64,000 bases of DNA from an uncultured Actinomycetota bacterium (lineage in GTDB: Bacteria > Actinomycetota > Humimicrobiia > Humimicrobiales > Humimicrobiaceae), in NCBI GenBank assembly GCA_964415365.1, contig CAYPYW010000010.1, positions 11,071-75,070 on the forward strand, in the 5' to 3' direction. Within the stretch, counting starts at the first letter, position 1, and each line of letters opens with the position of its first letter. Positions 1,041 to 16,033 of this stretch are shown here, one piece after another. The notes under the pieces were generated by a model that was not told the origin of the DNA, did not search any database, and saw only the letters and a program-made list of their open reading frames with translations. A program made the position numbers and the translations under genes.

Positions 1041-2288
1041 TTGGCCTTAAATAAATCAATATTTTTAAAAAAAAAGATAGTTCTTGGAATTACTGCATCT
1101 ATTGCCGCTTATAAAGCAGCTTCGATTTGCAGCAGGCTGACTGGTATGGGTGCCGAAGTAATTCCGGTTATGACCCCGAATGCTCTTAATTTTATAACCC
1201 CTATAACTTTAAGTTCAATCTCCGGGAATAAAACTGTTGTAGAACAATTTGTAAATCAGAAGAAAATTTACCATATCTCACTTTCTCACAGTGCAGATAT
1301 TTTTTTAATTGCGCCGGCTTCGGCGGATATTATCTCAAAGTTATCTTACGGAATCGGTGATAATTTCTTGACCACGTCGGCAATTTCTGCTGCGTGTCCT
1401 GTACTGGTTGCACCGGCTATGAATGAAAGCATGTATCTTGACCCTGTGATTCAAAAAAATATTCAGCAGTTAAAAGAAAGCGGAAAGTATTTTTTTGTGG
1501 GACCGAAGAGCGGCAGGCTGGCCTGCGGTGAGGAAGGCCTGGGAAAGCTGGAAGATGAAGATGTCATAATTGAGAGGCTGGGAGAGCTTTTAAATTATAA
1601 TTCAGACCTTAAAGGTAAAAAAGTCGTAATTACTGCCGGCGGTACCAGAGAGTTTATTGATATTGTAAGATATATATCTAACAAATCCAGCGGAAAGATG
1701 GGTTACGCTCTGGCTGAGGAAGCCTATTTTAGAGGAGCCCAAAAAGTGGTTCTTATAAGCGCCAGCAGGAGCCTTCAGCCTCCGTACGGGGTGAAAGTTG
1801 AATATGCCCAGGATACGGCAGAGATGAAGAAAGCCCTTCTTAAATATTTTAACGGCAGCGATATTATTATAATGGCAGCTGCTATAAGCGATATAATTCC
1901 GGCTAAAAAATATGATTTTAAGTTAAAGAAAAAAGATGATATATTATCCAAAATAAGCTTTAAAGAGAATGAAAATATCCTGGAGCTATTGGCTAAAAAA
2001 AAGAAAAAGAGCCAATATCTGGTAGGTTTTGCTGCCGAGAGTGGTTACAGCACTGGGGATATCATAAAGAAGATTGGTGGCAGGAATATTGATATGATTG
2101 TGGCCAATGATATTTCCAGAAAGGGGATAGGCATGGAAAGCGATTATAATGAGGTTGACATAGTAAAACAGGATGGGTCTGTAAAAAAACTGGGCAGGGG
2201 CAAAAAGAGGATTGTTGCCAGAGGAATCTGGGATGAAATTGTAAAAAGTTCGATTAAGCTGGAAGGAATTAATAGGAGGAGTAAATGA
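1041..2288 (+). CDS. coaBC: bifunctional phosphopantothenoylcysteine decarboxylase / phosphopantothenate-cysteine ligase
   Basis: N-terminal flavoprotein motif ([16 protein letters not shown]), C-terminal CoaB ligase region, 415 aa; conserved position after rpoZ. Confidence 0.9.
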
Positions 2289-3490
2289 CAAAGAAAAAGG
2301 ATTTTATGTTTACTTCGGAATCAGTAACCGAAGGTCACCCGGATAAAATGGCTGATCAGATTTCTGATGCCATACTTGATGCTATGATAGCTGATGACCC
2401 CAAATGCAGGACCGCTATTGAAACTCTGCTTAAAACGGGGATTGTTATAGTGGCAGGTGAAGTTACTACTTCTACATATGTGGAAATACCTGATGTTGTA
2501 AGAGAGGTTGTTAAGAATATCGGATACACAAGGGCAAAATATGGTTTTGATTATGAGACCTGCGGCGTTATTACTTCTATTGGGAAACAGTCTCCCAATA
2601 TAGCCCGGGGTGTTAATAATGCTTATGAAGCCAGAGTGGGAAATGGATATGAGAATGAGTTCGATACCCAGGGTGCCGGGGATCAGGGAATGATGTTTGG
2701 TTATGCATGTAATGAAACCGAGGAACTGATGCCTCTTCCTATCCAGCTTGCTCACAGGCTGTCTCACCGCCTGTCCGAAGTCAGGAAAGCAGGGATTCTG
2801 CCATATCTGAGACCTGATGGCAAAACTCAGGTAACAGTAAGATATGAGAATGACAGGCCGGTTTCTGTTGAGACCGTTGTAATAGCCACCCAACATGCTC
2901 CTAATATTGATGTAGAATCTCAGATAGGACCGGATATGAGAGAATTTGTGATAAAACCAATTATTCCTGAACAATATCTAAGCAAGGATTTAAAGCTATT
3001 TGTTAATCCTACGGGGGAATTTACGATTGGCGGACCTATGGGTGATACAGGAGTTACCGGAAGGAAAATAATTATAGATACCTATGGCGGAATGGCAAGG
3101 CATGGAGGAGGCTGTTTTTCGGGAAAAGATCCTTCCAAGGTTGATAGGTCAGCTGCCTATGCAGTAAGGCATGTTGCCAAGAATCTGGTGGCAAGCGGTG
3201 CCGCTGATAAGGTGGAAATAGAGGTGGCTTATGCTATAGGTGTTTCACATCCGGTATCGGTTATGGTGGAAACATTCGGTACTGAGAAAGTGGATGTCAA
3301 AAAAATTGAAAAGGCGGTAAAGGAAGTATTTGACTTGAGGCCGGCAGCGATTATCAGGAATTTGAATCTGCTCAGGCCTATTTATAAAAAAACTGCGGCT
3401 TATGGCCATTTCGGAAGGCATGACCGGGATTTCACCTGGGAGAAGCTGGATAAAGTTGATGAAATCAAGAGTTCTCTGGACCTTAAATAA
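2285..3490 (+). CDS. metK: S-adenosylmethionine synthetase
   Basis: [25 protein letters not shown]; [19 protein letters not shown] motifs; 401 aa. Confidence 0.95.
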
Positions 3491-3504
3491 TTACTTTTGT
3501 TTAA

Positions 3505-5766
3505 ATGGTTGGAAATAACAAATATGCAGAGGTTTACGTAGATATAAAAGCCTTTGATATTGATCATGCTTTTGATTACAGAATACCCCCCAGTTTATCC
3601 TTGAATATTAATACCGGCAGAATTGTTAGGGTCCCTTTCAAAAATAGAATTGAAGTTGGTTATATTGTAAAAACCAAGAATAAGTCAGAACTAGAAGATA
3701 AGGAAATAAAAGATATTGCCGGAATAGTGGATGCAAAACCCGTCTTCGATCCCGGAAGATTGGAACTCATAAATTGGATCAGCCGGTATTATATCCAGCC
3801 TCTGGGGAGTGTAATTAAGTTTTTCCTCCCTCCCGGAGGAAAATACAAGCAGGCAATCGCAGATTCCAGAGTAAAATTAAAATTCAGGGATTATATAACC
3901 TTAAACAGGAATGAGTATAAGCTGGTAAAGGATAAGGTTAACTGGAAAAAAAATTATTCACAAAAAAAGGTAATTGATTATCTGATTTTACATGGAGAAG
4001 TTTTAAAAGAAAAACTGATAAAAGATACCGGCTCAAGCTACGCAGGTCTTACTGCTCTTGCAGATAAAAAAATTGTATCTGTAATTAAAAAGAGGCAGAA
4101 GCGGGATTTCAGGTATGATTACCAGCCTGATAAGAATTTAAAGAAAAAAAAGATAATCTTAAACTCCTATCAAAAAAATGCGCTGTCCAGTATAGAAAAT
4201 GCTATAGGTAAAAATATTTTTCATAAATTCCTGATTGAAGGTGTGACCGGCAGCGGAAAAACTGATATTTATATAGCCGCCTGCAGGGAAGTTCTGACTG
4301 GTAAAAAAAAAGCACTTGTTCTAACTCCTGAGATTTCCCTAACCCCCCAGCTGTTTTCGAGATTTGAATCCGAGTTTGGGTCCAGAGTGTGTGTGTATCA
4401 TTCCAATATGAGTGAAGCAGAAAGGTATGAAAGGTGGCTGGATATATGGAACGGTGAGTTTGATATAATAATAGGAACCAGATCTTCAATTTTTACTCCC
4501 CTGGACAACCTGGGCATAATAATAATGGATGAGGAGCATGACCCATCCTATAAAGAAGGAACCAGAGTCAGATATAATACCCAGGACGTAGCAATAAAAT
4601 TGGGGGAGATACTTGGAATACCGGTGGTCATGGGCAGTGCTACACCCAGTCTGGTTACCAGGTACAGGGCAGAAAACGAGGATAATTTTACCCTGCTTAA
4701 GATTCCGGTTAAAGCTCAAAGTAGCAGTTTATTAAAAATGGAAGTGATCGATCTTAAAAAAATAGACCGTTTAAAAGAGGATATAGTTATAACCGGTAAG
4801 TTATTTACTGCAATCAGAGAGGAATTGGAAAAAAGCAATAAGGTAATTATTTTTTTAAACAGAAGGGGCTATAGTAACTTTATAATATGCAATAAGTGTG
4901 GTGCTGTTCCCAAATGTCCTGCCTGTGACCTTTCCTATAATTATCATAGCGATCCCAAAAAACTGATATGCCACCACTGCGGCAGAGAGCAGGATTATAC
5001 CGGAAAATGTCCTGTTTGTGGTGCGGACAGTGTCTTTTTATATGGTACAGGAATTCAGAAGGTTCAGTCGAAACTTCAGATGAGATTCAAGAGTATCCCC
5101 ATACTCAGGATGGATTCCGATGTGACCGTAAAGAAGAAGTCACACCAGGAAATACTGGAAAAGTTCATTTCTCCCGGGGGATCGATTCTTATAGGTACCC
5201 AGATGATAGCCAAGGGACTTGATGTTGAGGATGTTACTCTGGTGGGAGTCATTAATTGCGATAGTATGTTGGGACTCCCTGATTATCATATGAATGAGAG
5301 AGTTTATCAGCTTATTACCCAGGTATCCGGAAGGGCTGGAAGAAAGAGAAAGAAAGGCAGGGTAATAATCCAGACCTACAATCCCGGAAGCAGGGTCATG
5401 AAAAACATACTTGCAAATGATTATGAATCATTTTACGGGCAGGAATTAGAAAACAGGAAAGAGCTCGACTATCCTCCTTTTTCCAACCTGGTAAATATTA
5501 TAATATCCGGCAAGGATGAGAATAGGGTGAAAAAAGATATAAAAGGACTATTTGAAAAAATAAGCGGAGCTGTTAAGATTGACAGCATACTGGGGCCGGC
5601 TCCTGCTCCTTTTCATAAGATAAATTTATTTTACAGATGGCATATAATAATAAAGTCTAAAAATGTAGATTTTTTGAATGAGGCACTGGCTAAAATATTA
5701 AAGAGGTTTAAAAAATTCGATGAAAATAAGATAATTGTTGATGTAGATCCGGTATGGATTTTGTAA
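3505..5766 (+). CDS. priA: primosomal protein N' (replication restart helicase)
   Basis: N-terminal YAEVYVDI...FDY.IP, Walker A GVTGSGKT, DEEH, Cys4 zinc-binding insert (CNKCG..CPAC..CHHCG..CPVCG); 753 aa. Confidence 0.9.
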   Translation: MVGNNKYAEVYVDIKAFDIDHAFDYRIPPSLSLNINTGRIVRVPFKNRIEVGYIVKTKNKSELEDKEIKDIAGIVDAKPVFDPGRLELINWISRYYIQPLGSVIKFFLPPGGKYKQAIADSRVKLKFRDYITLNRNEYKLVKDKVNWKKNYSQKKVIDYLILHGEVLKEKLIKDTGSSYAGLTALADKKIVSVIKKRQKRDFRYDYQPDKNLKKKKIILNSYQKNALSSIENAIGKNIFHKFLIEGVTGSGKTDIYIAACREVLTGKKKALVLTPEISLTPQLFSRFESEFGSRVCVYHSNMSEAERYERWLDIWNGEFDIIIGTRSSIFTPLDNLGIIIMDEEHDPSYKEGTRVRYNTQDVAIKLGEILGIPVVMGSATPSLVTRYRAENEDNFTLLKIPVKAQSSSLLKMEVIDLKKIDRLKEDIVITGKLFTAIREELEKSNKVIIFLNRRGYSNFIICNKCGAVPKCPACDLSYNYHSDPKKLICHHCGREQDYTGKCPVCGADSVFLYGTGIQKVQSKLQMRFKSIPILRMDSDVTVKKKSHQEILEKFISPGGSILIGTQMIAKGLDVEDVTLVGVINCDSMLGLPDYHMNERVYQLITQVSGRAGRKRKKGRVIIQTYNPGSRVMKNILANDYESFYGQELENRKELDYPPFSNLVNIIISGKDENRVKKDIKGLFEKISGAVKIDSILGPAPAPFHKINLFYRWHIIIKSKNVDFLNEALAKILKRFKKFDENKIIVDVDPVWIL

Positions 5767-5783
5767 ATTGGGGAAGGTAGGAA

Positions 5784-6281
5784 ATGGCAGTTAAAGAAAT
5801 AAGAAAGATCGGTGATCCGGTTTTAAGAGAAAAAAGTAAAGCAGTGGAAAAAATAGACGATAAGCTTGTTAGTCTGATTCAAGATATGACCGATACATTG
5901 AAAGAAGAAGGTGCAGCAGGTCTTGCTGCTCCGCAGATAGGGATAACAAGGAGAGTAATTGTTGTAAATTTTGGTGACAGTGTCAAGGCGTTTATAAATC
6001 CGGAAATCAAAGTTCTGAGCAGAAAAAAAATAGAAAGTAATGAAGGATGTCTGAGTGTCTATTCGATAAAAGATTTTTCTGTTAATAGATTTTCAAAAGT
6101 CAGAGTAAGGGCAAAAGATTCAAAAGGCAGTAATATCACAGTTGTGGCGGAAGATTTACTGGCAAGAATATTTCAGCATGAAATTGATCACCTTAATGGA
6201 ATATTGTACATAGATCGTCTTGAATGGAAATCAAGAAGAGAACTTCTTTCAAAGATTAATGATATCAAATCAAATGTTTAA
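5784..6281 (+). CDS. def: peptide deformylase
   Basis: GAAGLAAPQIG, EGCLS, QHEIDHLNG motifs. Confidence 0.9.
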   Translation: MAVKEIRKIGDPVLREKSKAVEKIDDKLVSLIQDMTDTLKEEGAAGLAAPQIGITRRVIVVNFGDSVKAFINPEIKVLSRKKIESNEGCLSVYSIKDFSVNRFSKVRVRAKDSKGSNITVVAEDLLARIFQHEIDHLNGILYIDRLEWKSRRELLSKINDIKSNV

Positions 6282-6296
6282 AATAAGGAGACTCGT

Positions 6297-7265
6297 TTGA
6301 GGATATTGTTTTTTGGCTCTTCCGAAATTTCAGTTCCATTCCTGGAAGAAATATATAAATCAAAACATGGCATATCTCTTGTTGTGGCTACTGTTGATAA
6401 GCCGGCAGGAAGGGGAAGAAAAACTTTACCTAATGTAGTAAAAAGCAAGGCTATTGAGTTGGGAATTGATTATATTCAGATTGAGAAGTTTGACAATATT
6501 TTTTTTGATAAGTTTACAAAATTAGGGTTTGACGGAATTGTAGTGGTTTCTTTCGGAAAGATATTTCCTGAAAAAATATTTAAATTGACATCTGCCCGGT
6601 GGTTAAATGTCCACCCTTCACTTCTGCCGCGGTATAGAGGTCCAACACCTGTTATAAGTACGCTCCTGAATGGTGATGAGGTAGGAGGGATCAGCATAAT
6701 GGATGTAGTGCCTGAGGTAGATGCAGGTGGTATATATGCTCAGGTGAAATTCGGTGTTGGAGAAGACGATAACCGTGACAGCCTGGAGAGAAAGATAATA
6801 GAATTTGGAAAATCCCTTCTGATTACGGTACTTGACCTTGTAGAGAGTGAGAGGATTAAGTCATATCCCCAGGATGAGGAAAGTGTGACTTATAGTCACA
6901 AAATTACAAAAGATGACCTGAAAATCAACTGGGGCAGCAGTGCGATGGAAATAGTTAATAAAATCAGAGCCTTCAGCTCAAGTCCAGGTGCCTATTTTCT
7001 GTGGAAGGATTCAAGAATTAAAATTCTTAAGGCAAGTGTCTTAGATAGAGCTATAACCAATGCCTGTCAGGATAAACTTAAAATTGATAAAAGTAAGAAG
7101 GATGGTTTTGTAGTTGAGGCTGATAAAAAAGCAGGTATTCTGGTTAAGTGTAATAAAGATGAAATAATAAAGATTGAGTTGCTCCAGCCTCAGGATAAAA
7201 AAACAATGTCTTCGGTGGATTTTATTAACGGATACGGACTTAAAGCTGGTGAAAGTTTTGAATGA
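6297..7265 (+). CDS. fmt: methionyl-tRNA formyltransferase
   Basis: TTG start with AGGAG RBS; HPSLLPRYRGPTP motif; def-fmt synteny. Confidence 0.9.
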   Translation: MRILFFGSSEISVPFLEEIYKSKHGISLVVATVDKPAGRGRKTLPNVVKSKAIELGIDYIQIEKFDNIFFDKFTKLGFDGIVVVSFGKIFPEKIFKLTSARWLNVHPSLLPRYRGPTPVISTLLNGDEVGGISIMDVVPEVDAGGIYAQVKFGVGEDDNRDSLERKIIEFGKSLLITVLDLVESERIKSYPQDEESVTYSHKITKDDLKINWGSSAMEIVNKIRAFSSSPGAYFLWKDSRIKILKASVLDRAITNACQDKLKIDKSKKDGFVVEADKKAGILVKCNKDEIIKIELLQPQDKKTMSSVDFINGYGLKAGESFE

Positions 7266-8805
7266 AAGAAAAATCAAAAAGAGATCCGGAATCAATCCAC
7301 GCAAAATTGCCCTTCTTATCTTAATCCAGTATTTTAAAAAGAGGGGATCCTTAAAAGATATAATAAATAGCTGCCTTAAGAATTATGAACTGTCAAAGCT
7401 CGACAGGCGTTTTATCTTCAATATAGCCAAGGGTACGGTAAGATATTACCAGAAAATTGATTTCATACTTTCTTTATTTTCAAATAAAGATATAAAAGAT
7501 ATTGATTTTGTGATTCTTAATATACTGCGCATGGGGATTTTTCAGTTGATTTATATGAGTAAAATTCCCGATTATTCAGCGGTTAATGAAAGTGTCCAGC
7601 TGGCAAAGAAAAATGCTGGCGTGTCTTCTTCCAAATTCGTGAATGCGATACTGCGTAAAATTAGTTCAATCCCGGACATGGATTCGTTTATAGAAGGGGA
7701 AATTAAAAGGGTGGCAAAGGACGAAACTGACAGAATCAGTATAAACTACTCTTATCCCGGATGGCTCATAAAGTACTGGCTCGACTGTTATGGAAAGGAA
7801 AAAACTGTTCTAATCTGCAGGTCGCTTAATGAAAACCCGCATACTTACCTGAGATTTAATAAAGATAAGATTGCAAGGGAAGAATTGTTTAAGGAGTTAG
7901 GCGTAAAATCAATTGATGGAAAATACTACAGTCAAAATGTTAAAGTCATACATGAATCTGCATCGGATGATATTGAAACAGAAGGTGATAATAATGAACA
8001 ATTTGTATCGAAGCATAGTATATTAGAAGATGTCATAGAAGTTTCCACCGTTCAGGATATTTCGGGAACTGATGTTTATAAGAAAGGCCTGGTTTCGATT
8101 CAGGATATCTCTTCTCAAATAGCTGTAAAGTATTTTCTAAATCCTCTCGGAAGTGAAAAAGTACTGGATGTATGCGCTGCACCCGGCGGAAAGACTGCAC
8201 ATATTGCCGAGCTTGTCGGGAATGATGGAGAGGTAATATCGGTTGATATAAACAGGAAGAGGCTAAAAATATTGCAGGATAATCTGAAAAGGTTAGACAT
8301 AAAGAATGTAAGAATTATAGAAGCTGATGCGGCCGGGCAGAATTTCCTGGAAAGAAGCGAAGGTGCTAAAAATAAAAGAAAACCTGATAGTTACACGGGA
8401 TATTTTGATAAAATTTTAATCGATGCTCCATGCAGCGCTTTTGGGACGATTTCCAAGAATCCGGATGCAAAGTATAGTAAAACAATGGATGATGTAATAC
8501 GCCTTTCTGAAATGTCTTACAGGATGATGGTAAATTGTGATACTTATCTAAAAGCTGGCGGAAAACTTGTTTTTTATACCTGCACACTTTCACCCACAGA
8601 AAATCAACAGGTGATAGGGAAGTTTTTGGAGGAATTTAAAGGTAAATATGTTATCGGGAAGCAGGTCATTTCTGATGAGCTGATATCCGTTTTAGAACAT
8701 AAAAAAATTATGTTAGGACCACGAGAAAAAACCTGCCTTGAAATTATGCCCTATTATTTTGAAAGTGAAGGCGGCTTCGTCTGCAGCCTGATAAAACGGT
8801 CATGA
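7258..8805 (+). CDS. rsmB: 16S rRNA (cytosine967-C5)-methyltransferase RsmB/Sun with N-terminal NusB-like domain
   Basis: NusB-like N-term (INPRKIALLILIQYF), SAM MTase motifs (DVCAAPGGKT, IDAPCS), PUA-like C-term. Six-frame ORF opens at 7174 and overlaps fmt; start assigned to TTG 7258 with GGTGA RBS 7 nt upstream (GTG 7249 is an alternative). Confidence 0.85.
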   Translation: MNERKIKKRSGINPRKIALLILIQYFKKRGSLKDIINSCLKNYELSKLDRRFIFNIAKGTVRYYQKIDFILSLFSNKDIKDIDFVILNILRMGIFQLIYMSKIPDYSAVNESVQLAKKNAGVSSSKFVNAILRKISSIPDMDSFIEGEIKRVAKDETDRISINYSYPGWLIKYWLDCYGKEKTVLICRSLNENPHTYLRFNKDKIAREELFKELGVKSIDGKYYSQNVKVIHESASDDIETEGDNNEQFVSKHSILEDVIEVSTVQDISGTDVYKKGLVSIQDISSQIAVKYFLNPLGSEKVLDVCAAPGGKTAHIAELVGNDGEVISVDINRKRLKILQDNLKRLDIKNVRIIEADAAGQNFLERSEGAKNKRKPDSYTGYFDKILIDAPCSAFGTISKNPDAKYSKTMDDVIRLSEMSYRMMVNCDTYLKAGGKLVFYTCTLSPTENQQVIGKFLEEFKGKYVIGKQVISDELISVLEHKKIMLGPREKTCLEIMPYYFESEGGFVCSLIKRS

Positions 8806-8859
8806 AACTTTCCCCAAAACAGCAAATCCTGGGTAGTATTAATAACTAAAGGTTTAAAA

Positions 8860-8868
8860 TAATAAATC
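8860..8868. repeat. 9-bp direct repeat TAATAAATC, left target-site duplication of MITE-like element
   Basis: Exact 9-bp copy immediately outside both terminal inverted repeats (8860-8868 and 9098-9106). Confidence 0.45.
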
Positions 8869-9097
8869 GGAAGCATCTAAAATTCCGTGATAGCGATAAA
8901 AGTAAAACTTTAAGGGCCAGGATGGGTTATTTCAAAAACACGCAAGCTTTTACCCAGCGAGAAAGAGCTTGCTCAGTTTCAGGCTTCGCTCTCCTCTTAG
9001 AAGAGGAACCATGCCCGCTTTGCCTTCAAATGGTTTTCTTAAGTAACCCGTCCTCGCCCATTAATTTATTTTTTATCACGAATTTTTAGATGCTACC
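8869..9097. mobile_element. MITE-like non-autonomous element (229 bp) with imperfect ~24-bp terminal inverted repeats and extensive internal hairpin potential
   Basis: 5' end GGAAGCATCTAAAATTCCGTGATA (8869-8892) matches the reverse complement of 3' end TATCACGAATTTTTAGATGCTACC (9074-9097) apart from 2 mismatches and 1 indel; flanked by a 9-bp direct repeat; no coding capacity; internal pairs (GGCCAGGATGGGTTA / TAACCCGTCCTCGCC, CCTCTT/AAGAGG). Confidence 0.45.
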
Positions 9098-9106
9098 TAA
9101 TAAATC
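9098..9106. repeat. 9-bp direct repeat TAATAAATC, right target-site duplication
   Basis: Exact copy of 8860-8868. Confidence 0.45.
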
Positions 9107-9113
9107 AATTATA

Positions 9114-9141
9114 TTGAAATAATCCCATAATATGTTAACAT
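9114..9141 (+). promoter_or_regulatory. putative vapBC promoter (TTGAAA-16-TAACAT) overlapping a 10-bp perfect palindrome ATGTTAACAT (9132-9141), a candidate RHH antitoxin operator
   Basis: Seen in sequence; half-site TTAACAT repeated at 9172-9178 abutting the vapB start codon. Confidence 0.3.
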
Positions 9142-9176
9142 AGAATATACAATTAATAATTAACTAAAAATTTAAC

Positions 9177-9440
9177 ATGGATACAAAAAAAAGAACACAT
9201 GTCGTAGTTCCAGAAGAATTAGTGGAGGAAATAGACAGACTTTCGGGGAAAAGGAAGCGTAGCTGGTTTATAACTCAGGCTGTAAGAAAAGAGATACAGA
9301 GATTAAATTTCCTTGATGCAGTAAAGGAAACAGCAGGAACCTGGAATGATAAAGATCATCCTGAATTCAAAAAAGGAGTTGAAAGCTGGGTAAGACGTCT
9401 GAGGGATGAAGACAAAAAGAGATTGAAGGATATGTTGTAA
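9177..9440 (+). CDS. vapB: ribbon-helix-helix (CopG/VapB-type) antitoxin
   Basis: 87 aa; N-terminal RHH pattern THVVVPEELVEEIDRL...RSWFITQAVRKEI; stop overlaps toxin start (TAATGG). Confidence 0.75.
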   Translation: MDTKKRTHVVVPEELVEEIDRLSGKRKRSWFITQAVRKEIQRLNFLDAVKETAGTWNDKDHPEFKKGVESWVRRLRDEDKKRLKDML

Positions 9441-9823
9441 TGGCTGAATATCTACTGGATACAACAATAATAATTGAACATCTCCGTGGTAATACAAAAG
9501 TAAGTTCCTGTCTGGAAGAAATAGGAATTAAAGGTGACATTGCGGGATGCTGTTGTATAAATATTGCCGAAGTTTATACTGGGGTTAAGGAAAAGGAGAA
9601 AGAGAAAACAGACAGATTTATTGAAAGCCTTTATTACTTTGAAGTGACTAAAGAGGTTGCTAGATTGGCCGGGAAACTGAAGCAAAAGTATGCTGGGAAG
9701 GGTAAAACATTGTCAATCGCTGATGTAATTATTGCAGCTACAGCAATGGTGTATGGTTTAACATTGATTACGAAAAATGTAAAGCATTATCCTTTTCCAG
9801 AGCTAGAAATTAACGAAATCTAA
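9440..9823 (+). CDS. vapC: PIN-domain ribonuclease toxin VapC
   Basis: 127 aa; LLDTTIIIE (first acidic residue), IADVIIAATA, LITKNVKHY PIN motifs; 4-nt overlap with vapB. Confidence 0.8.
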   Translation: MAEYLLDTTIIIEHLRGNTKVSSCLEEIGIKGDIAGCCCINIAEVYTGVKEKEKEKTDRFIESLYYFEVTKEVARLAGKLKQKYAGKGKTLSIADVIIAATAMVYGLTLITKNVKHYPFPELEINEI

Positions 9824-9963
9824 CTGCATATCATTTTTATTATAAGATAACACATTTGTAATTATCTGGTTTTATTAAAATATGATATATTTAAGTTGTT
9901 AAGGTAGTTCACCAAGATCTTTATAGACGGAATACCACGGATTCTTAAAGAATTAAAATAAAT

Positions 9964-12900
9964 ATGGAAGAGTTAAACAATATTGTTGCTTATTGGTATG
10001 ATTGTATCAAGAGTGAAGATATTTTAGAGAAAGATATTTCTATAAATGTCAGGAGTAAAGCAGTTCTTTACCCTTTTGATAATGATCCATTCATTTTTGA
10101 TAAAAGAGAAAATTCAGTCTTGGTGTCCGGAGACGGAAAATTGACTACTTTTTCAGAATATATCAGCATACGAGATTACGAGCCATATTATGGATATCCA
10201 ATTCTGTTTTATTTTGACGATAACTCAAAAAAATACTTGGTTGCACCTCTTTTTATAATTAAGGTGAAGTTCGTTGAAAAGGATAAGGGGCTACATCTAC
10301 AAAAAGATGAACAAAATCCTACTTGTGGAATTCAAGCATTTAGCAGGCTTGGATTTCGCACCGAGGAAATTGCTGATATAAGTCAACCTCTAGAAAGGTT
10401 ATTTAGAAGTGAGTTTTCTAATAGTAAAAATTTAGCAGAAAAATGTTTAGAGGTTATTCAAAAGGAAGCTGAGCTACCAATTAATGAGCCTATAGATCCT
10501 AATAGGTTAACCAACAGGGAAAAGATTTCGAAGAATATGGCTTCAGGTTTGTATAATAAAAGTTTAGTCTTTGCTGGTGAAAATACTGCTTATAACATTA
10601 GCCTGCTCCAAGACTTGCTAGAATTGAAAGAAAAAAATGATTTAGACAAGACTGCTCTTTCATTTATCCTTGAAAAGATATCTTCAGTTAAAGGAGTTGA
10701 AAAAACACCAATTCTTCCTTTTCCTTCAAATGAGTATCAAGTAAAAGCCCTACAGAATATATTTCAAAATAAGTTATCTGTCATTACCGGTCCACCTGGT
10801 ACTGGAAAAAGCCAATACATTTCAAATCTGTTGATTAACCTTTTTCTTGAAGGAAAGTCAGTTCTCTTTGTTAGTCATACTAATCCGGCAGTTGATGTTG
10901 TAAATGAAAAAATAAATCAACAATTTCGAAACTTGATGCTTCGGACAGGTAGAAAAGAATTTCGGCAAGAACTTAAAGGAAGGTTTAACGAATTAATTTT
11001 GGAGTCAGAAAGAAAACCATTGGAACAGGGACAGATAGGTCAAATTCAATCTATGTGGCAAACGATCTTGCAATATCGAGAAAGCTTGTTACAGCTAGAC
11101 CAGCTAGAACAACGATTTGAGGACAGTTATCTACCTTACAGTAATAGAAAAACTCCTTTTTACGAAGGTTATAATTTAGAACAATCATTTGAAGAATTAT
11201 CCCCCAATTTGAGGAAATTGGAAGTTATTAAAGAAAGATTGGAACATCTTAGGAGTAAAATAGAGAATAAACAATTTTCTTTATTGGAGAGAATTGTTCT
11301 CTTCTTATTTCCACATTATATTGAGAACAAAAAGGAAAGATTATTTTATAATTTGAGTCGTATTCTACCACTTAGTACTCTTAGGATTCTCCAGAATTCT
11401 ACGAAGCCTGCTCAGATTAGAAATTGGAACGACCAAGGATGGTTAAGACTGTCAGAATACCTTGAACTGTTAAAATACTTTTTCAAATTTGAAACAATCA
11501 GGCAGGAAATAGAAACTTTTCAACCCAGGGCGATTATTGAACAAAAAATTAGGAAGCTAGAAAAGGATTTTTGCGATGTTTCAAAAAGGTTTGTAAAGGA
11601 CATTTACATACAAAGAATGCTTGGGAAAGGTGAAAATGTTGGAAGGGTAAATTCATTTTTGTATCAAGTAGATTCTATTAGACCAAATGATGATGGTATC
11701 GATAGCTATTTATTTAAGGAAGCTCTTGATGCTTTAAAAATATGGTCATGTACTTTGAAATCAGTCAGAAGAACGTTTCCTCTAAGTCCTGGCATCTTTG
11801 ATTATGTAATTTTTGATGAGGCTTCACAGGTTGATCTACCCTCAGCAGCACCAGCTCTTTATAGAGCAAAAAGAGCTATTGTGGTTGGTGACCCTATGCA
11901 ACTTACGCATGTTGCTGGGTTAACCAGGGACATAGATAAGGGATTGGCTCGGATCCATGGACTAACGGAAAAGAAGAATATCTACCCTTCAAAGATAAGA
12001 TATTGCGATATTCCCCTTTATAGATCTGCAGAGAATTCTCTAAGTCATAAGCCCATACTGCTAATTAATCATTATCGGTCAGAAGACCAAATTATTGCTT
12101 TATGTAATCAGGCTTTTTATGGGGGGCATTTAAAAATAATGACCACTCTTGATTACGCCCGATACCCTAGCAGTTTACCATTAGGTATTCACTGGATTAA
12201 TTGTGAAGGTGAAGTTTTTAAACATCCTGCAGGGAGCAGAATAAATCGCGCTGAGGTCTTATTGGTAAATAAGGTTTTCCAAGATGTATTACAAGAAATA
12301 TCAGGGACAGATCTAAGTATAGGTATTGTCACTCCCTACTCTCGTCAACAGGACGCAATATACGAAAGAATTTCCCAATCAACATCGGCAGAACTTCTTG
12401 AGAGACATAATGTAAGAATCCTTACCGCTCATAAATTTCAGGGGTCTGAAAAAGACATAATGATATTTTCTTTAGTTTTGGCATCCCGCGGAAATGGAAG
12501 TAGTGATCGATGGTATAATATTTACCCTCAAATTTTGAATGTAGCCTTATCGCGGGCGAAGTATCTTTTATATATTGTAGGAGATAGAAACTTTTGTCAC
12601 GAACATTCCTGTTATAAAGAGCAAGATTGTGTACTAAAGCGATTGGTTAAAACTTATGACGATATTAAGAAGCAGGAAAAAGCTGAGGAATATACATTGT
12701 TTGAAAAGTTTGACTCTCCGACTGAAAGATTTCTTTTTGAGAAATTACAGAAGATAGATTTTGGGCGTCTTAAGTATAAATTGATTCCCAAGTTGGTCGT
12801 TAAGAGATATACACTAGATTTCGCACTTCTAGGTAAGAAAAAGATAGATATTGAGTGTGATGGCTACCAGCATACAATTATCGAAGGTTTCCCGGTATTG

Positions 12901-13029
12901 GAGGATGTCGCAAGAGACTATTTTTTGAAAGAGGAAGGGTGGGAAGTTTTTAGATTTCCTAATCATAGAATTTTGTCTCAAACTGATATTGTGATCGAAG
13001 ATATTTTAAATTTGTTGAAGGAGCCATAA
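9964..13029 (+). CDS. large multidomain protein: N-terminal DUF4011-like region, Dna2/Upf1-family SF1 helicase (AAA_11/AAA_12) and C-terminal DUF559/Vsr-like (REase_MTES_1575-type) PD-(D/E)xK endonuclease; candidate single-gene defence protein
   Basis: Walker A VITGPPGTGKSQY; motif II VIFDEASQVDL; VVGDPMQL; motif V/VI ILTAHKFQGSEKDIMIFSLV and ALSRAKYLLYIVGD; C-term LDFAL...IDIECDGYQH...DVARDYFLKEEGWEVFRFPNH matches DUF559/Vsr-like pattern; no SD; AT-richer than neighbours (about 28% vs about 39% GC in hand-counted 120-nt samples). Confidence 0.8.
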   Translation: MEELNNIVAYWYDCIKSEDILEKDISINVRSKAVLYPFDNDPFIFDKRENSVLVSGDGKLTTFSEYISIRDYEPYYGYPILFYFDDNSKKYLVAPLFIIKVKFVEKDKGLHLQKDEQNPTCGIQAFSRLGFRTEEIADISQPLERLFRSEFSNSKNLAEKCLEVIQKEAELPINEPIDPNRLTNREKISKNMASGLYNKSLVFAGENTAYNISLLQDLLELKEKNDLDKTALSFILEKISSVKGVEKTPILPFPSNEYQVKALQNIFQNKLSVITGPPGTGKSQYISNLLINLFLEGKSVLFVSHTNPAVDVVNEKINQQFRNLMLRTGRKEFRQELKGRFNELILESERKPLEQGQIGQIQSMWQTILQYRESLLQLDQLEQRFEDSYLPYSNRKTPFYEGYNLEQSFEELSPNLRKLEVIKERLEHLRSKIENKQFSLLERIVLFLFPHYIENKKERLFYNLSRILPLSTLRILQNSTKPAQIRNWNDQGWLRLSEYLELLKYFFKFETIRQEIETFQPRAIIEQKIRKLEKDFCDVSKRFVKDIYIQRMLGKGENVGRVNSFLYQVDSIRPNDDGIDSYLFKEALDALKIWSCTLKSVRRTFPLSPGIFDYVIFDEASQVDLPSAAPALYRAKRAIVVGDPMQLTHVAGLTRDIDKGLARIHGLTEKKNIYPSKIRYCDIPLYRSAENSLSHKPILLINHYRSEDQIIALCNQAFYGGHLKIMTTLDYARYPSSLPLGIHWINCEGEVFKHPAGSRINRAEVLLVNKVFQDVLQEISGTDLSIGIVTPYSRQQDAIYERISQSTSAELLERHNVRILTAHKFQGSEKDIMIFSLVLASRGNGSSDRWYNIYPQILNVALSRAKYLLYIVGDRNFCHEHSCYKEQDCVLKRLVKTYDDIKKQEKAEEYTLFEKFDSPTERFLFEKLQKIDFGRLKYKLIPKLVVKRYTLDFALLGKKKIDIECDGYQHTIIEGFPVLEDVARDYFLKEEGWEVFRFPNHRILSQTDIVIEDILNLLKEP

Positions 13030-13083
13030 CCATGATACTTCATCTAACACAGCTAAAAGATTCGTGCCTTATGGTACTCACCC

Positions 13084-13113
13084 AAATTTTTGCTCCGCAA
13101 AAATTTATTTTTA
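13084..13113 (+). terminator. Rho-independent terminator downstream of helicase-nuclease gene
   Basis: Perfect 10-bp stem AAATTTTTGC / GCAAAAATTT with 3-nt loop TCC, followed by ATTTTTA. Confidence 0.5.
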
Positions 13114-13220
13114 TATAATAAGTAAAAACATGAATGAATTGTATTCCAAAAAAGTGGAAAAGGAAGACATTGTTATTTTAACTGAGTATCGTTTCAAAAT
13201 GTTTGATGAAATATTTTTAC

Positions 13221-13412
13221 TTAGACTATTTTTTTAACCTTACCTGATGTCAAGCAGCTGGCACAGATATTTATAGTCTTAATCTCGCCTTTATATTCAA
13301 CCTTTGCCTTATGAATATTGGGCTTAAAGATCCTTCTGGTTTTTTTGTGTGAGTGACTTACATTATTTCCAAAAGATGTTTTTTTACCGCAAATTTCACA
13401 TACTCTGGGCAT
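13221..13412 (-). CDS. rpmB: 50S ribosomal protein L28
   Basis: MPRVCEICGKKTSFGNNVSHSHKKTRRIFKPN...CASCLTSGKV matches L28; only minus-strand gene in window; divergent from yloV as in Firmicutes. Confidence 0.9.
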   Translation of the reverse strand: MPRVCEICGKKTSFGNNVSHSHKKTRRIFKPNIHKAKVEYKGEIKTINICASCLTSGKVKKIV

Positions 13413-13648
13413 TTTTTCTCCTGTATATTTTAAAAAAATTTATATTTTAATTCCGGGGAATATTTATTTTATTAATTATAAATAAACCAGGAACGAATAT
13501 TAGCATTTTATTTTTCACTTTTCAAGGTAAATAAAAAAGTAATTAAGTGTTAATAGAAACAATTTTTAACCAATAAAGTCTTAAGGAATGTAGAAAAAAA
13601 GTGTGTCTGGATAAAGATTGTTTTATCCGGGTAGAAATGAGGCGAATT

Positions 13649-13658
13649 CTGATATAAT
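13649..13658 (+). promoter_or_regulatory. extended -10 promoter element (TGaTATAAT) for yloV
   Basis: Perfect TGnTATAAT 31 nt upstream of the yloV start; no clear -35. Confidence 0.35.
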
Positions 13659-13689
13659 ATATTAGAGTATTTAGCCATTTAACCCTGAA

Positions 13690-15456
13690 ATGGGTAAAGC
13701 TATGTTTAATGAAATAAACAAACAAGAGTTAGATAAAGTCATTGATATAATAATAGAGAATTTTAAGGAAAACGAAGATAAAATTAACGATATGAATGTA
13801 TTTCCTGTTCCTGACGGGGATACCGGTACCAATATGCTGCTTACTTTGAATTCAATCAAGGAAGAACTTTCAAAACTTAAGGATTTTTCTGTAGGAAATG
13901 TTCTGGAGAGAGCTTCATTTGGAGCATTAATGGGGGCCAGGGGAAATTCTGGTGTAATATTGTCTCAAATACTCAAGGGTTTTTTTGATATTATAACAAA
14001 ATGTGACAGTCTGAGTCTGGAGGTAATAAAAGAAGCACTGAGATCATCCAGAGATCTGGCCTATGATTCTGTACAGGATCCAACCGAGGGTACCATGCTT
14101 ACTACCATAAAAGATATCTGCAAGTTTGTGGATGATCTGACCAATCATACCGGTAAAATAAAACTGATAGAGCTCCTGGATAAAATTATTTTGGAAGCCG
14201 AAAAATCTGTTGAGAGAACCACTTTTCTCCTGCCTGTATTGAAAAAAGCAGATGTGGTGGATGCCGGAGCACAGGGTATCCTGGATATACTGATTGGAGC
14301 CAGAAAGGCAATGACCGATATCAGTAGTATAAATGGAAAATTGGAAAGGACACTTGTTGGAAGCGTAGGGAGCTTATCTTCCGGATCCGGCGGCAGTGGT
14401 AACCCCGGTAGTAACAGTTCGGAAAACAATAATCCTGACACCAATCCCGAAGCTGATATCCTGAAGGTTGGAAAGGAAAGTTTGGAAGAGGTAAAAAGAA
14501 GTTATGAAATCAAATACACTTATTGTACAGAATTCATATTAAAAGGCAGTGGGATAGATATAGAAAGACTGAGGGAAAGAATTGAAAGTTTTGGCGACAG
14601 TGCTCTGGTAGTCGGAAATGATAGTCTGGTGAAAATACATGTTCATACCAACCATCCCCATAAGGTTCTGAGGAGGGCGTTGAGTGAAGGTACTCTTCAC
14701 GATATTCAGATTAATAATATGAAAGATCAGAGAGAAGAGGTAACAGGAAAAGCAGAAGCAGTAGGGAAGGCAGAAACAACAGAAGAAAAGATGGAAGAAA
14801 GGAGAACACTAATAGCAGTAGCTAATGGTGAAGGATTGGAAGGGATATTTAAAAGTATTGGTGTAGATATTATTGTAAGCGGCGGACAAAGCATGAATCC
14901 ATCAACCTACGATATAGTAAAGGCTATAAATAGTACAGAAGCTTCTGAGGTTGTTATATTTCCAAATAATAAAAATATAATACTTACCGCTAATCAGGCA
15001 AAAAAGATTGTAAAGAATAAAGGTGTTTATGTGGTACCAACCAGAAGTATACCGGCAGGCATATCGGCAATACTGTCTTATAATCCTGATTCGGCCATGG
15101 AAGAGAATATGTGCGGCATGGAAGAAGCAGCTAAAAAGGTCAAAGACGGAGAGATAACCCAGGCAGTAAGAGATGCAAATCTTATGGTCGGTGAGATAAA
15201 AAAGGGCGAATATATCGGCCTGTCCAGCGGCAAGGTTAGAGTGATATCGGATAATGTGGTAGATGCCACTATTGATCTGATAAGAGACATTGCAGGTTCC
15301 ACTGAGGAAGTTATTACTTTTTACACCGGAAAGGATGCTGCACCGGAAGACATTGAAAGCATCAAAAAAGAGATCAAAAAGCATTTTCCCAGAATGGACA
15401 TAGAAATACATAAGGGTGAACAACCCTTATATCCTTATATATTTTCAATCGAATGA
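13690..15456 (+). CDS. yloV: DAK2-domain fusion protein YloV (DAK2 + DegV/fatty-acid-kinase-like C-terminal domain)
   Basis: DAK2 motif PVPDGDTGTNM; 588 aa; low-complexity G/S/N-rich linker (SLSSGSGGSGNPGSNSSENNNPD); conserved rpmB-divergent position. Confidence 0.8.
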   Translation: MGKAMFNEINKQELDKVIDIIIENFKENEDKINDMNVFPVPDGDTGTNMLLTLNSIKEELSKLKDFSVGNVLERASFGALMGARGNSGVILSQILKGFFDIITKCDSLSLEVIKEALRSSRDLAYDSVQDPTEGTMLTTIKDICKFVDDLTNHTGKIKLIELLDKIILEAEKSVERTTFLLPVLKKADVVDAGAQGILDILIGARKAMTDISSINGKLERTLVGSVGSLSSGSGGSGNPGSNSSENNNPDTNPEADILKVGKESLEEVKRSYEIKYTYCTEFILKGSGIDIERLRERIESFGDSALVVGNDSLVKIHVHTNHPHKVLRRALSEGTLHDIQINNMKDQREEVTGKAEAVGKAETTEEKMEERRTLIAVANGEGLEGIFKSIGVDIIVSGGQSMNPSTYDIVKAINSTEASEVVIFPNNKNIILTANQAKKIVKNKGVYVVPTRSIPAGISAILSYNPDSAMEENMCGMEEAAKKVKDGEITQAVRDANLMVGEIKKGEYIGLSSGKVRVISDNVVDATIDLIRDIAGSTEEVITFYTGKDAAPEDIESIKKEIKKHFPRMDIEIHKGEQPLYPYIFSIE

Positions 15457-16033
15457 TTTTACTGGATGGAGATGGGCTATTAGAATTATTTCTGGTAAAT
15501 TCAAAGGCAGAAAACTAAAACCTCCTTCGGATTATAAAATCAGACCTACTTTAGACAGTGTAAAAGAAAGTATTTTTAATGTTATTGGCAGCAGAATAGA
15601 AGGGTCAAACGTCCTTGATTTATTTGCGGGAACAGGCTCACTGGGAATAGAATCCTTAAGCAGGAACTGCAATCTGGTATATTTTGTAGATGAAAGCTTT
15701 GAGTCAATTAATCTTATAAGATATAATGTCACCTGTTTAAAAATCGAAAATGAGAAGTATAAAATAATCAGAAGTGACGTTCTGGAGTTTTTGCAATCTT
15801 ATGTGAACTCAAAATGGGATATAATCTTTATAGACCCGCCATATAAGATTGAAAGTGGTATAATGAGAAAAATATTTGGCGTTCTATCTGAAAAAAGAGT
15901 TAGCAGGGCTGATACTCTGATAGTATACGAATATTTTTTTAAGAGAGATGTCAGGGAAGAGATAGAGGGTTTGAAAAAAATTAAGGAATCACATTTTGGG
16001 GATAAAAGGGTGATTTATCTTTCTCCTTATTAA
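15416..16033 (+). CDS. rsmD: 16S rRNA (guanine966-N2)-methyltransferase RsmD
   Basis: GKFKGRKL, DLFAGTGSLGIESLSR, DPPY motifs; only canonical in-frame start is GTG 15416, which overlaps the yloV 3' end by 41 nt; start uncertain. Confidence 0.75.
   Translation: MNNPYILIYFQSNDFTGWRWAIRIISGKFKGRKLKPPSDYKIRPTLDSVKESIFNVIGSRIEGSNVLDLFAGTGSLGIESLSRNCNLVYFVDESFESINLIRYNVTCLKIENEKYKIIRSDVLEFLQSYVNSKWDIIFIDPPYKIESGIMRKIFGVLSEKRVSRADTLIVYEYFFKRDVREEIEGLKKIKESHFGDKRVIYLSPY

Follow-up and report, generated by a model that had tools for sequence, protein, structure and literature searches.

Between the core genes rsmB and rpmB of this genome lie ~4.4 kb of accessory sequence, and the question raised by the locus is whether this interval was acquired as one piece in place of a conserved gene block, as proposed in the initial annotation, or was built up by separate insertions. 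We consider it probable that the interval is a layered insertion hotspot between the convergent rsmB and rpmB genes, in which four insertions are stacked and a helicase-nuclease cassette is the newest.

Host lineage and the rsmB-rpmB interval

In the 64-kb stretch of DNA analysed (the window), rsmB forms the left core flank (7258..8805, forward strand), having Pfam NusB and Methyltr_RsmB-F domains and a 100% match to P0001; its start is probably GTG at 7249 or TTG at 7258, and the ORF as listed begins at 7174, overlapping fmt. The right core flank is rpmB (ribosomal protein L28; 13221..13412, reverse strand; Pfam Ribosomal_L28), which is convergent with rsmB and adjoins rsmB or its cargo in ~35 related loci. 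The interval contains a 229-bp element with inverted repeats, an 87-aa/127-aa PIN pair and a 1021-aa helicase-nuclease. This order, continuing into rpmB and fakA/yloV (13690-15456), had been described correctly, as had the upstream order priA-def-fmt-rsmB. No yloU/Asp23 ORF was found between rpmB and fakA.

The genome had been described as Firmicute-like, but its RsmB is 56-75% identical to that of MAGs of Candidatus Hydromicrobium/Humimicrobiaceae (Actinomycetota), which are the nearest genomes; the host is a low-GC member of the class Humimicrobiia, phylum Actinomycetota. A search for rlmN, prkC and rpe elsewhere, made together with prpC, rsgA and thiN using queries from a verified Clostridia locus, gave no match either in the window or, across 40 related loci, at a distance of up to 10 kb from rsmB, while as a control the same queries did match Bacillota loci, the block following rsmB in Clostridia/Bacillota. 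The rlmN-prpC-prkC-rsgA-rpe block occurs at the rsmB-rpmB site in none of the ~40 related genomes compared, and in ~14 of the more distant ones the gap between the two genes is 8-59 nt. The ancestral state in the lineage is rsmB directly adjoining rpmB, and the proposed replacement of a conserved block had to be abandoned. That the interval is accessory and variable among relatives was borne out, with vapBC occupying the site in 10 loci, a GNAT gene in more than 10, and other cargo (AraC and WD40, an Rce1-like protein, a metallophosphoesterase and unknowns) or a near-empty gap in others.

The low GC content claimed for the island was not recovered by windowed GC and codon analysis. The helicase gene has 34.6% GC against 36.8 +/- 2.2% in 47 other window genes (z -1.0), with z-scores relative to window genes of -1.7 for GC3 and -2.0 for synonymous-codon fit, and the composition of vapB and the PIN gene is normal for the window. 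The stretches of lowest GC are intergenic (9751-10250) or surround the core gene rpmB. Weak Shine-Dalgarno sequences had also been taken as a sign of foreign origin, but in a rough scan the core was missing in 31 of 54 window genes, rsmB and fakA among them.

Resident genes and the MITE

The pair identified as vapBC is indeed a vapBC-like PIN module. Upstream of it, a conserved region (9107..9176, forward strand) is 81-88% identical in DNA to the spacer between rsmB and vapB in most of the nine matching relatives (76% in locus L018) and includes a promoter-like site (9114-9141, TTGAAA-16-TAACAT, TG-extended), matches of this kind being no commoner than chance in the region. The vapB-like antitoxin candidate (9177..9440, forward strand, 87 aa) has no Pfam match and a weak NCBIfam YlcI/YnfO_N match (25.1 bits, cutoff 30); it is found at equal length and position in 10 relatives with 76-93% aa identity and a dN/dS of 0.03-0.09. 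Its stop codon overlaps the start (TAATG) of the PIN-domain, VapC-like toxin candidate (9440..9823, forward strand, 127 aa), which matches Pfam PIN with 55.6 bits (cutoff 23.6) and NCBIfam VapC models under their own cutoffs, and in which residues D7, E44, D95 and N113 were read at the usual spacing. Eight relatives carry the PIN ORF at full length (76-87% aa identity; dN/dS 0.05-0.11), and partial copies are present in L017 (91% over 78 residues) and L006 (a 41-aa remnant). The dS of vapBC is 0.8-1.3 against 0.37-0.83 for core genes to L005, and the divergence of the pair is about equal to that of the flanking core genes. Taken together, vapBC is a vertically inherited, old resident of the site under purifying selection (dN/dS 0.03-0.11), gained at the clade level and kept, presumably as an RNase toxin-antitoxin module.

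A second resident, also of clade level, is a GNAT acetyltransferase gene beside rpmB. It has been cut here to a stump (13130..13237, forward strand), detected by tblastn against the gene start in more than 10 relatives, in which ~30 N-terminal codons are homologous before the frame enters the 3' end of rpmB. Given that the intact gene of relatives encodes 156 aa (Pfam Acetyltransf), ~380 nt have been deleted in the window. The spacer 3' of the PIN gene (9824..9911) aligns with the ancestral PIN-GNAT spacer over its first ~28 nt, and its last ~60 nt are common to L008 only (blastn 85% over 88 nt, L008 only), a locus with a different cassette-like insert at the corresponding position.

The element next to rsmB is a MITE, as had been claimed. 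It spans 229 bp (8869-9097) with 37-nt imperfect terminal inverted repeats, and is bordered by a 9-bp target-site duplication, TAATAAATC, at 8860-8868 and 9098-9106. As relatives align from 9098 onward only, their sequence represents the empty site. Metagenome loci contain 59 near-full copies of the family, 80-90% identical and each bordered by a 9-bp duplication of its own, and the parent element, 1378 bp long and sharing these ends, codes for a UPF0236 transposase, which we take to belong to the ISLre2 family. In line with a mobile repeat, the same genome as assembled independently in Logan (L001) breaks off within the left inverted repeat of the MITE. These data support a lineage-specific acquisition by transposition, in which the non-autonomous UPF0236 (ISLre2-type) derivative inserted between rsmB and the vapBC promoter, producing the duplication.

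The helicase-nuclease gene and its cassette

The remaining gene (9964..13029, forward strand; Pfam AAA_11, AAA_12 and DUF559) encodes a protein of 1021 aa that joins an Upf1-like SF1B helicase to a DUF559/Vsr-like nuclease at its C terminus; the N-terminal ~250 aa are conserved among homologs and match nothing known. Sequence matches in the PDB were Upf1/Sen1/DNA2/IGHMBP2 and 3hrl, the last also being found by Foldseek (TMt 0.80) with a predicted structure of poor quality (mean pLDDT 62.7). The motifs GPPGTGKS (276-283) and DEAS (618-621) and residues D952/E964/D966/H970 are invariant in 28 homologs, the catalytic motifs of the window protein are intact, and a dN/dS of 0.12-0.14 indicates selection on the protein. 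The gene is absent from all 40 related rsmB loci, supporting a lineage-specific, horizontally acquired insertion.

The gene lies within an integron-type gene cassette of 3.2 kb (9921..13106, forward strand) with 78-85% DNA identity to loci L082-L091, in which the helicase copies occupy five different neighbourhoods of unrelated contigs. The homology takes in the ORF, ~40 nt before it and ~80 nt after it, running from 9924, 9931 or 9964 to 13091, 13106 or 13110 in L082-L084 and L087-L091, and being limited to the ORF (9963-13013) in L085 and L086. The leader (9921-9963) begins TTATAGACGGAATACCACGG. Alignment and a consensus fold place a truncated attC at 13037-13106, with R'' (ATCTAAC, 13042-13048), L'' (GCTAAAAG, 13052-13059) and hairpins at 13064-13077 and 13084-13106. 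Its L' and R' boxes are missing, and the loss of this 3' arm should leave an integron integrase unable to mobilise the cassette. A Rho-independent terminator had been proposed to close the island; the hairpin at 13084-13106 is indeed followed by a T-rich tail, but it has 2 G-C pairs only, and so the terminator scan made no call.

Some helicase copies are found in co-oriented arrays with attC-like sites, called by hand-built criteria, a stricter finder recovering just 1-5 sites. In L085, GTTA[AGT]NN occurs in 14 of 15 spacers (shuffle mean 5.4, maximum 10), at least eight spacers fold as 60-150-nt AAC/GTT-closed hairpins (z -3 to -9), and the helicase's own site reads GGCTAAC...GTTAGCT. In L087, the attC of the upstream cassette ends GTTATAT precisely where homology to the window starts, and its R'' (ATATAAC), when reverse-complemented, reads G plus TTATAT; here and in L082, the left homology end is a cassette start set by the neighbouring attC. 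An unrelated MAG (L048) has the same attC type, 88% identical, behind a gene that is likewise unrelated. Such comparisons fix the cassette boundaries and place homologous copies in arrays, and they suggest insertion by an integron integrase, the cassette with its single gene entering the PIN-GNAT spacer. The base preceding the cassette start is T, against the G expected for a G/TT crossover; with L' and R' also missing, a junction made by integrase would need a later small deletion, or else another entry route was used. No integron integrase was seen in the annotated part of the window (~30 kb being unannotated for one).

Alternative readings and known systems

That MITE, vapBC and helicase-nuclease arrived as a single islet replacing the block is very improbable: gene content and upstream order are as described and the block does follow rsmB in Bacillota, but the host belongs to Actinomycetota, no relative has the block here, the compositional signal is absent, and distant relatives have rsmB abutting rpmB. 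Of the "horizontally acquired defence/addiction islet" what stands is the lineage specificity of the helicase-nuclease and the MITE; vapBC, which 10 relatives have at the same position and whose composition is normal, is ancestral by comparison with the helicase, shared with none. An assembly or binning artefact with a chimeric helicase segment is the least probable reading. The contig is a metagenome assembly, and the independent Logan assembly (L001), ending at the MITE, leaves the helicase junctions uncovered; arguing the other way, both junctions lie on one contig in lineage-specific sequence (PIN spacer to the left, GNAT stump and rpmB to the right), synteny resumes exactly on either side, and in GC and codon use the helicase is near the host. 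Entry of the gene without an integron, by illegitimate or homologous recombination after transformation, with the 3' module as a co-transferred terminator or 3' UTR, is unlikely. It would agree with the missing boxes and junction G, the lack of an integrase in view, the terminator-like hairpin and T-run, and the more distant homologs (62-66% aa), which lie outside arrays and lack the attC-like 3' module, but not with the cassette starts in L087 and L082, the hairpin-bearing arrays of the nearest homologs or the module behind an unrelated ORF in L048.

Given its domains and mobility, the helicase-nuclease may be a stand-alone nucleic-acid-targeting defence protein, in which ATP-driven translocation would deliver the nuclease. 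A housekeeping accessory in DNA repair or RNA processing, or a selfish gene without host benefit, is a lesser though real possibility. In its favour are the JGI name 'very-short-patch-repair endonuclease', the Vsr-like DUF559 domain, and the work of the closest solved helicases in RNA surveillance and replication. None of the curated PADLOC and NCBIfam defence models was passed, matches to MkoA/MkoC, PDC-S37, ProA, Hhe and PLuB covering the helicase core only, far under curated cutoffs (MkoC 1e-55, MkoA 1e-53; ProA 131 bits, cutoff 1500; Hhe 83, cutoff 2000); no recognisable defence island surrounds the window copy, and neighbours in other genomes are mainly metabolic or unknown genes. However, a patchy, cross-phylum, solitary and cassette-borne gene fits a core repair function poorly, the protein is under selection, and compact defence genes are reported to be abundant in integron cassettes (Darracq et al. 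2024, 10.1101/2024.07.02.601686).

Like other core-gene hotspots, the site holds differing accessory genes by relative at one intergenic position, toxin-antitoxin and nuclease genes included; unlike them, it is a convergent, terminator-to-terminator gap between two translation genes, with neither integrase nor tRNA. Its vapBC pair resembles type II VapBC modules in the small upstream ORF overlapping the PIN ORF and in being conserved as a unit, and differs in an antitoxin without a Pfam family and a toxin not passing the NCBIfam VapC equivalogs; VapBC is usually strain-variable, whereas this pair keeps to a single chromosomal site throughout a genus-to-family-level clade. The MITE agrees with ISLre2-derived MITEs in its length of hundreds of bp, terminal repeats common to a 1.38-kb transposase element, 9-bp duplications and many copies; its family is unnamed in the libraries searched (no Rfam match), and it is carried by uncultured bacteria from lakes and sediment.

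Single-protein helicase-nuclease anti-phage systems include Nhi, Hna, Hhe, the type II Mokosh protein MkoC and ProA. The protein described here shares with them an SF1 helicase core and nuclease on one polypeptide encoded by a solitary, patchy, mobile gene, and differs in its C-terminal DUF559/Vsr-like nuclease and unmatched N-terminal region.

The cassette was compared with those free of complete integrons (CALIN, singles and secondary-site insertions; Cury et al. 2016, PMC4889954; Neron et al. 2022, 10.1101/2022.02.28.482270) and with cassette-borne defence genes of sedentary chromosomal integrons (Darracq et al. 2024). It is atypical in its large size, truncated attC and left junction without the canonical G, and in its actinobacterial-class host, integron parts being very rare in Actinobacteria (Cury et al. 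2016; Neron et al. 2022) and no integrase being known from the host lineage. It is typical of integron cassettes in its single ORF, short leader and 3' imperfect palindrome with RYYYAAC and partner boxes, and in having near-identical copies in co-oriented arrays with spacers ending in GTTAGGC-like sites. As in the systems compared, there is no integrase nearby and the cargo resembles a compact single-gene nuclease system.

Gene content of the rsmB–rpmB interval and its state in related genomes

The gene order given in the initial annotation was borne out by the ORF list and Pfam scans. A run of gmk, rpoZ, coaBC, metK, priA, def, fmt and rsmB (ending at 8805) is followed by a short non-coding element of 229 bp (the MITE, 8869–9097), an 87-aa ORF regarded as an antitoxin candidate (9177–9440), an overlapping PIN-domain ORF (9440–9823), a gene (9964–13029) whose 1021-aa product combines AAA_11/AAA_12 helicase domains with DUF559 at its C-terminus and, on the minus strand, rpmB (13221–13412), after which come fakA/yloV, rsmD, coaD and the usual plsX-rnc-smc-ftsY-ffh-rimM-trmD-rplS run. 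The host had been taken to be Firmicute-like (Bacillota), but it is the gene order alone that resembles Firmicutes. The best RsmB homologs (56–75% identity) come from Candidatus Hydromicrobium, Candidatus Humimicrobiaceae or Actinomycetota MAGs, FakA and CoaD likewise have their closest relatives in Candidatus Hydromicrobium/Humimicrobiaceae MAGs, and Hydromicrobium is placed in the class Humimicrobiia of the phylum Actinomycetota (NCBI taxonomy). Scans of the whole window for Rfam families (at gathering threshold) and tRNAs were both empty, so that neither the MITE nor the module 3' of the helicase gene belongs to a known RNA family and no tRNA marks the site.

Two features lie downstream of the interval. 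At only 771 aa, the SMC-family ORF (22684–24999) is short by the standard of bacterial SMCs; it may be a compact lineage-specific form or reflect the way the ORF was called. Between the divergent rpmB and fakA, the 277-nt non-coding spacer (13413–13689) is 85% identical in DNA to that of the related locus L005, and a core of ~120 nt is still ~81% identical in L026 and L027, whose RsmB is only 57% identical. The spacer has no Rfam family and no yloU/Asp23 ORF and may be a leader or regulatory element.

Related loci were collected by an alignment-based scan of species-representative genomes, which returned approximately 40 rsmB loci with 10-kb flanks; the same scan with a single RsmB sequence gave no matches, and an alignment of homologs was needed. 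Window proteins were then placed in these loci by tblastn. Among the more distant relatives (RsmB 41–60% identical), about 14 have rpmB on the opposite strand only 8–59 nt after rsmB. The gap holds the 87-aa/127-aa pair in 10 loci of closer relatives and a 41-aa PIN remnant in the related locus L006, while a 156-aa GNAT acetyltransferase gene adjoins rpmB in more than 10 loci. Other cargo in closer relatives includes an AraC regulator with a 672-aa WD40 protein, an Rce1-like protein, a metallophosphoesterase and several unknowns.

It had been proposed that the interval replaces a conserved rlmN-prpC-prkC-rsgA-rpe block. As a positive control, these genes and thiN were found downstream of rsmB in Acetivibrio mesophilus (L060, Pfam-verified), and block queries from this locus matched 6–17 Bacillota and other loci (tblastn, E<1e-6). 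The same queries had no match at this threshold in the 64-kb window or in the 40 related loci (up to 10 kb from rsmB). Given this result and the near-empty site of the distant relatives, there was no replaced block; the ancestral state is that of two adjacent convergent genes, the gap having been filled since. Alignment of the interval with relatives, which the initial annotation had suggested, revealed variable cargo but no such block at this site in the ~40 relatives, and the region is a variable hotspot, an ordinary kind of thing.

Composition was also said to mark the island. The helicase gene has a GC content of 34.6% against 36.8 ± 2.2% in 47 other window genes (z −1.0), with z −1.7 for GC3 and −2.0 for synonymous-codon fit; vapB and the PIN gene are unremarkable, and the windows of lowest GC are intergenic, including conserved DNA around rpmB. 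A Shine-Dalgarno core, the weakness of which had been considered a further sign of foreign origin, is absent upstream of 31 of the 54 genes in a rough scan, rsmB and fakA included. With the helicase gene near host values and the lack of this core widespread, neither property separates the island from the core genes. Promoter-like and terminator-like sites in the island were not above shuffled controls in number. The observation itself was real and its reading right in spirit for part of the DNA, but its Firmicute context and the block replacement do not hold: a Firmicute-looking gene order had suggested a deletion and replacement that never occurred.

Putative toxin-antitoxin pair, acetyltransferase stump and MITE

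The PIN ORF matches PF01850 with 55.6 bits (cutoff 23.6), and VapC equivalogs of NCBIfam match its product only at scores below their cutoffs. The 87-aa ORF overlaps its start by 1 nt and has no Pfam match, with a weak YlcI/YnfO_N match of 25.1 bits against a cutoff of 30; no antitoxin family of Pfam or NCBIfam passed. Ten relatives have the pair at this position and with unchanged lengths, at 76–93% aa identity, with dS of 0.8–1.3 and dN/dS of 0.03–0.11, and the flanking core genes have dS of 0.37–0.83 against L005. The divergence of the pair is thus similar to that of its neighbours and consistent with vertical descent. Conservation in relatives extends to the 70 nt upstream, in which there is one promoter-like site. 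The pair appears to be an old toxin-antitoxin pair, consisting of a candidate PIN toxin and a candidate antitoxin, and its joint conservation in the 10 relatives lends indirect support to such a function. At the other end of the interval, 13130–13218 corresponds to the first ~30 codons of the 156-aa acetyltransferase of relatives; its frame enters the 3' end of rpmB and therefore ~380 nt are missing. The GNAT gene is decayed here, and a similar stump occurs in the related locus L007.

The MITE (8869–9097) has imperfect inverted ends of 37 nt and is bounded on both sides by a direct 9-bp repeat, TAATAAATC. It encodes no transposase, its sole ORF being of 55 aa and without a family. The sequences of relatives match the window only from 9098 on and so present an empty site; the MITE is a fresh insertion. 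In one metagenome scan, a 21-nt end pattern located the inverted-repeat end in 111 stretches, 59 of which contain near-full copies at 80–90% identity, most of them 220–235 bp long. Copies have 9-bp duplications of their own, which were present with at most one mismatch at 38 of 77 end pairs. A second, independent assembly of this genome (L001, a contig of Logan SRR14802574) ends inside the left inverted repeat at window position 8898, as is expected of a multi-copy sequence. Three metagenome loci, L135 (1513–2890), L145 and L150, hold a 1378-bp element with the same ends, the 423-aa ORF of which in L135 matches Pfam UPF0236 with 68.6 bits (cutoff 24.3). This element is likely the autonomous parent of the family. 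Another candidate, locus L103 with inverted MITE ends 2.5 kb apart, was rejected as an autonomous element as it holds a UvrD gene and no transposase; the stretch (5512–8021), with its UvrD-type helicase gene between the inverted ends, looks composite and has no matching target duplication.

Cassette-like features of the helicase-nuclease unit

The helicase gene is absent from every one of the approximately 40 related rsmB loci. There are many homologs, and their conservation is unusually high: relatives that match over the full length, at 77–84% aa identity, lie on short metagenome contigs, the C-terminal half is 60–80% identical in proteins named for Aminicenantales, Bacteroidales, Schekmanbacteria, Aerophobetes, Gribaldobacteria and Thermoflavifilum, and the homolog search returned the identical protein (P0121), of which an exact look-up had given no record. 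A scan of viral contigs found no relative, hence there is no evidence of a phage carrier. Five contexts of the closest relatives all have different neighbours, yet their DNA is 78–85% identical to the window. In the four closest copies (L082, L083, L084 and the L087 group), homology runs from 9924–9964 to 13091–13110, that is, over the ORF with up to ~40 nt upstream and ~80 nt downstream, and in L085 and L086 the match is limited to the ORF (9963–13013). Genes flanking the copies carry inconsistent taxon labels by cluster names (Dehalococcoidia, Thermodesulfobacteriota, 'bacterium'). The flanks of two more distant homologs, L203 and L205, are without an attC-like module. A 64-aa HTH_3 (Xre-like) gene stands before the 925-aa homolog of L205 (7784–10778; Thermoflavifilum thermophilum) and may regulate it.

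Integron cassettes are delimited by attC sites with RYYYAAC and GTTRRRY boxes, crossover taking place between G and TT. On sequence grounds, the helicase units appear to have the defining features of such cassettes and sites. The 3' module starts with ATCTAAC just past the helicase stop codon, and in L087, L084 and L048 a partner arm ~90 nt downstream ends in GTTAGAC, GCTAGGT or GTTATCT; complete attC-like sites are present in the homologous copies of L087, L084 and L085 and in L048. Upstream of the helicase, the neighbouring gene in L087 and in L082 is followed by a palindrome of its own that ends in GTTATAT or GTTAGGC exactly where homology starts, and homology to the window begins at the TT of this upstream GTT site. 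In L087, G plus TTATAT is the reverse complement of the upstream cassette's own ATATAAC box.

In L085 and L087 the helicase-type unit is part of arrays that share one orientation and are bounded by GTTRRRY sites. Strict and relaxed attC finders, both requiring an ungapped L-stem, returned 1 and 5 sites and missed sites obvious by eye; they were replaced by motif-enrichment and constrained-folding tests. In L085, a stretch of a 192-kb ENA contig, the helicase lies among at least 14 co-oriented, mostly unannotated ORFs (1659–15732), with GTTA[AGT]NN in 14 of 15 spacers (shuffle mean 5.4, maximum 10); at least eight spacers fold as 60–150-nt hairpins closed by AAC/GTT (z −3 to −9), and the helicase's own site reads GGCTAAC...GTTAGCT. 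This stretch would be a large cassette array. The sequence of the attC module does not recur within the helicase contigs, and the arrays are therefore not homogeneous. By eye, the array of L087, which has the closest helicase homolog, begins right after a tRNA-like gene (1448–1620), with no integrase between the two. L048, a Candidatus Phoenicimicrobium oleiphilum MAG, has an 89-nt attC-like site (15846–15934, AGCTAAC...GTTATCT) that is 88% identical to window 13037–13111, follows an unrelated 346-aa ORF and has an N-terminal integrase fragment and a DNA methylase as neighbours. This type of attC-like site occurs in more than one phylum.

The window copy starts with the leader TTATAGACGGAATACCACGG at 9921 and keeps the 5' two-thirds of its putative attC, up to 13106, with R'' (ATCTAAC), L'' (GCTAAAAG) and the central hairpins. 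As the L' and R' boxes are missing from the complete R''-L''...L'-R' arrangement, the copy is a cassette remnant that would not be mobilisable. The left junction reads ...GATCT followed by TTATAGAC, the cassette side of which fits G/TTRRRY, the preceding base being T and not G. No recombinase was found among the annotated ORFs of the window up to 33 kb. We read this copy as a stranded cassette that arrived either by integrase insertion with later erosion or by another recombination route; secondary-site insertion and decay are among the listed sources of lone attC sites (Cury et al., PMC4889954).

Approximately 60 nt just left of the cassette (within 9824–9911) are common to L008 only, so that two distinct species share an inserted piece within 88 nt after the PIN stop codon. 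In L008 (12219–12590) the 88-nt left piece is followed by GTTAAGCGAAATACAACGG and a 55-aa SAM-methyltransferase-like stump ending at motif I. This different cassette-type unit, starting GTTAAGCGAAAT..., occupies the position of the window cassette in the spacer between the PIN and GNAT genes. A common left piece before different units could mean that both species have the same docking site or that a small array once stood here. A wider proposal, which we consider doubtful, is that the Humimicrobiia, a lineage of Gram-positive type, repeatedly captured integron cassettes at a docking site that lacks an integrase. Were this so, integron-style exchange would extend to a phylum regarded as almost closed to it, and such capture would deliver the 1021-aa Upf1-like helicase/Vsr-like nuclease as a new single-gene defence family.

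Predicted role of the helicase-nuclease and comparison with known systems

The helicase core is of the Upf1-like SF1B type (AAA_11/AAA_12, Pfam), with sequence matches in the PDB to Upf1, Sen1/SETX, DNA2 and IGHMBP2. Walker A and B and the downstream helicase motifs are present, and GPPGTGKS (276–283), DEAS (618–621), VGDPMQL and QGSEKD are invariant in 28 homologs. The C-terminus matches DUF559 (PF04480) with 49.2 bits against a cutoff of 20.6, and D952, E964, D966 and H970 of this domain are invariant in the same number of homologs; it is predicted to be a DUF559/Vsr-like PD-(D/E)xK nuclease. Because the AlphaFold model is poor (mean pLDDT 62.7), its use was limited to this nuclease domain, which superposes on 3hrl (TMt 0.80) and the I-Bth0305I homing-endonuclease domain (TMt 0.71) in Foldseek, and to family-level helicase matches; it gave no assignment for the N-terminal domain. 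Against its homologs the protein has a dN/dS of 0.12–0.14.

Matches to named defence systems were considered and rejected. The PADLOC and NCBIfam models concerned (MkoA/MkoC of Mokosh, PDC-S37, ProA, Hhe and PLuB) match the helicase core only, with PADLOC hits covering just part of each profile, and scores are far below cutoff (in NCBIfam, ProA 131 bits against 1500, Hhe 83 against 2000, PLuB 82 against 999); the protein is therefore not a member of any of these systems. No partner genes of multi-gene systems were found, the gene being solitary with differing neighbours in the window and seven other contexts. With moderate confidence, we propose a single-protein, nucleic-acid-targeting defence in which ATP-driven 5'–3' translocation would be coupled to cleavage. 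The main rival is that the enzyme would serve in repair or RNA processing. Defence is the most likely role in view of the solitary, mobile, patchy and apparently cassette-borne state of the gene and of a reported abundance of compact defence genes in integron cassettes (10.1101/2024.07.02.601686). The protein is an uncharacterised, highly conserved, cross-phylum helicase-nuclease and a testable candidate defence gene.

The interval is built of an old, putative toxin-antitoxin pair, the decayed GNAT gene, a fresh MITE whose parent can be traced and what appears to be a stranded integron-type cassette. The ~40 relatives show a naturally near-empty gap filling layer by layer, a datable case of a gap between convergent core genes turning into an accessory hotspot, and a widespread MITE family is documented along with its likely parent IS. 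The putative cassette would be an integron-type unit stranded in Actinomycetota, where integron components have been reported to be very rare (Cury et al., PMC4889954; Neron et al., 10.1101/2022.02.28.482270).
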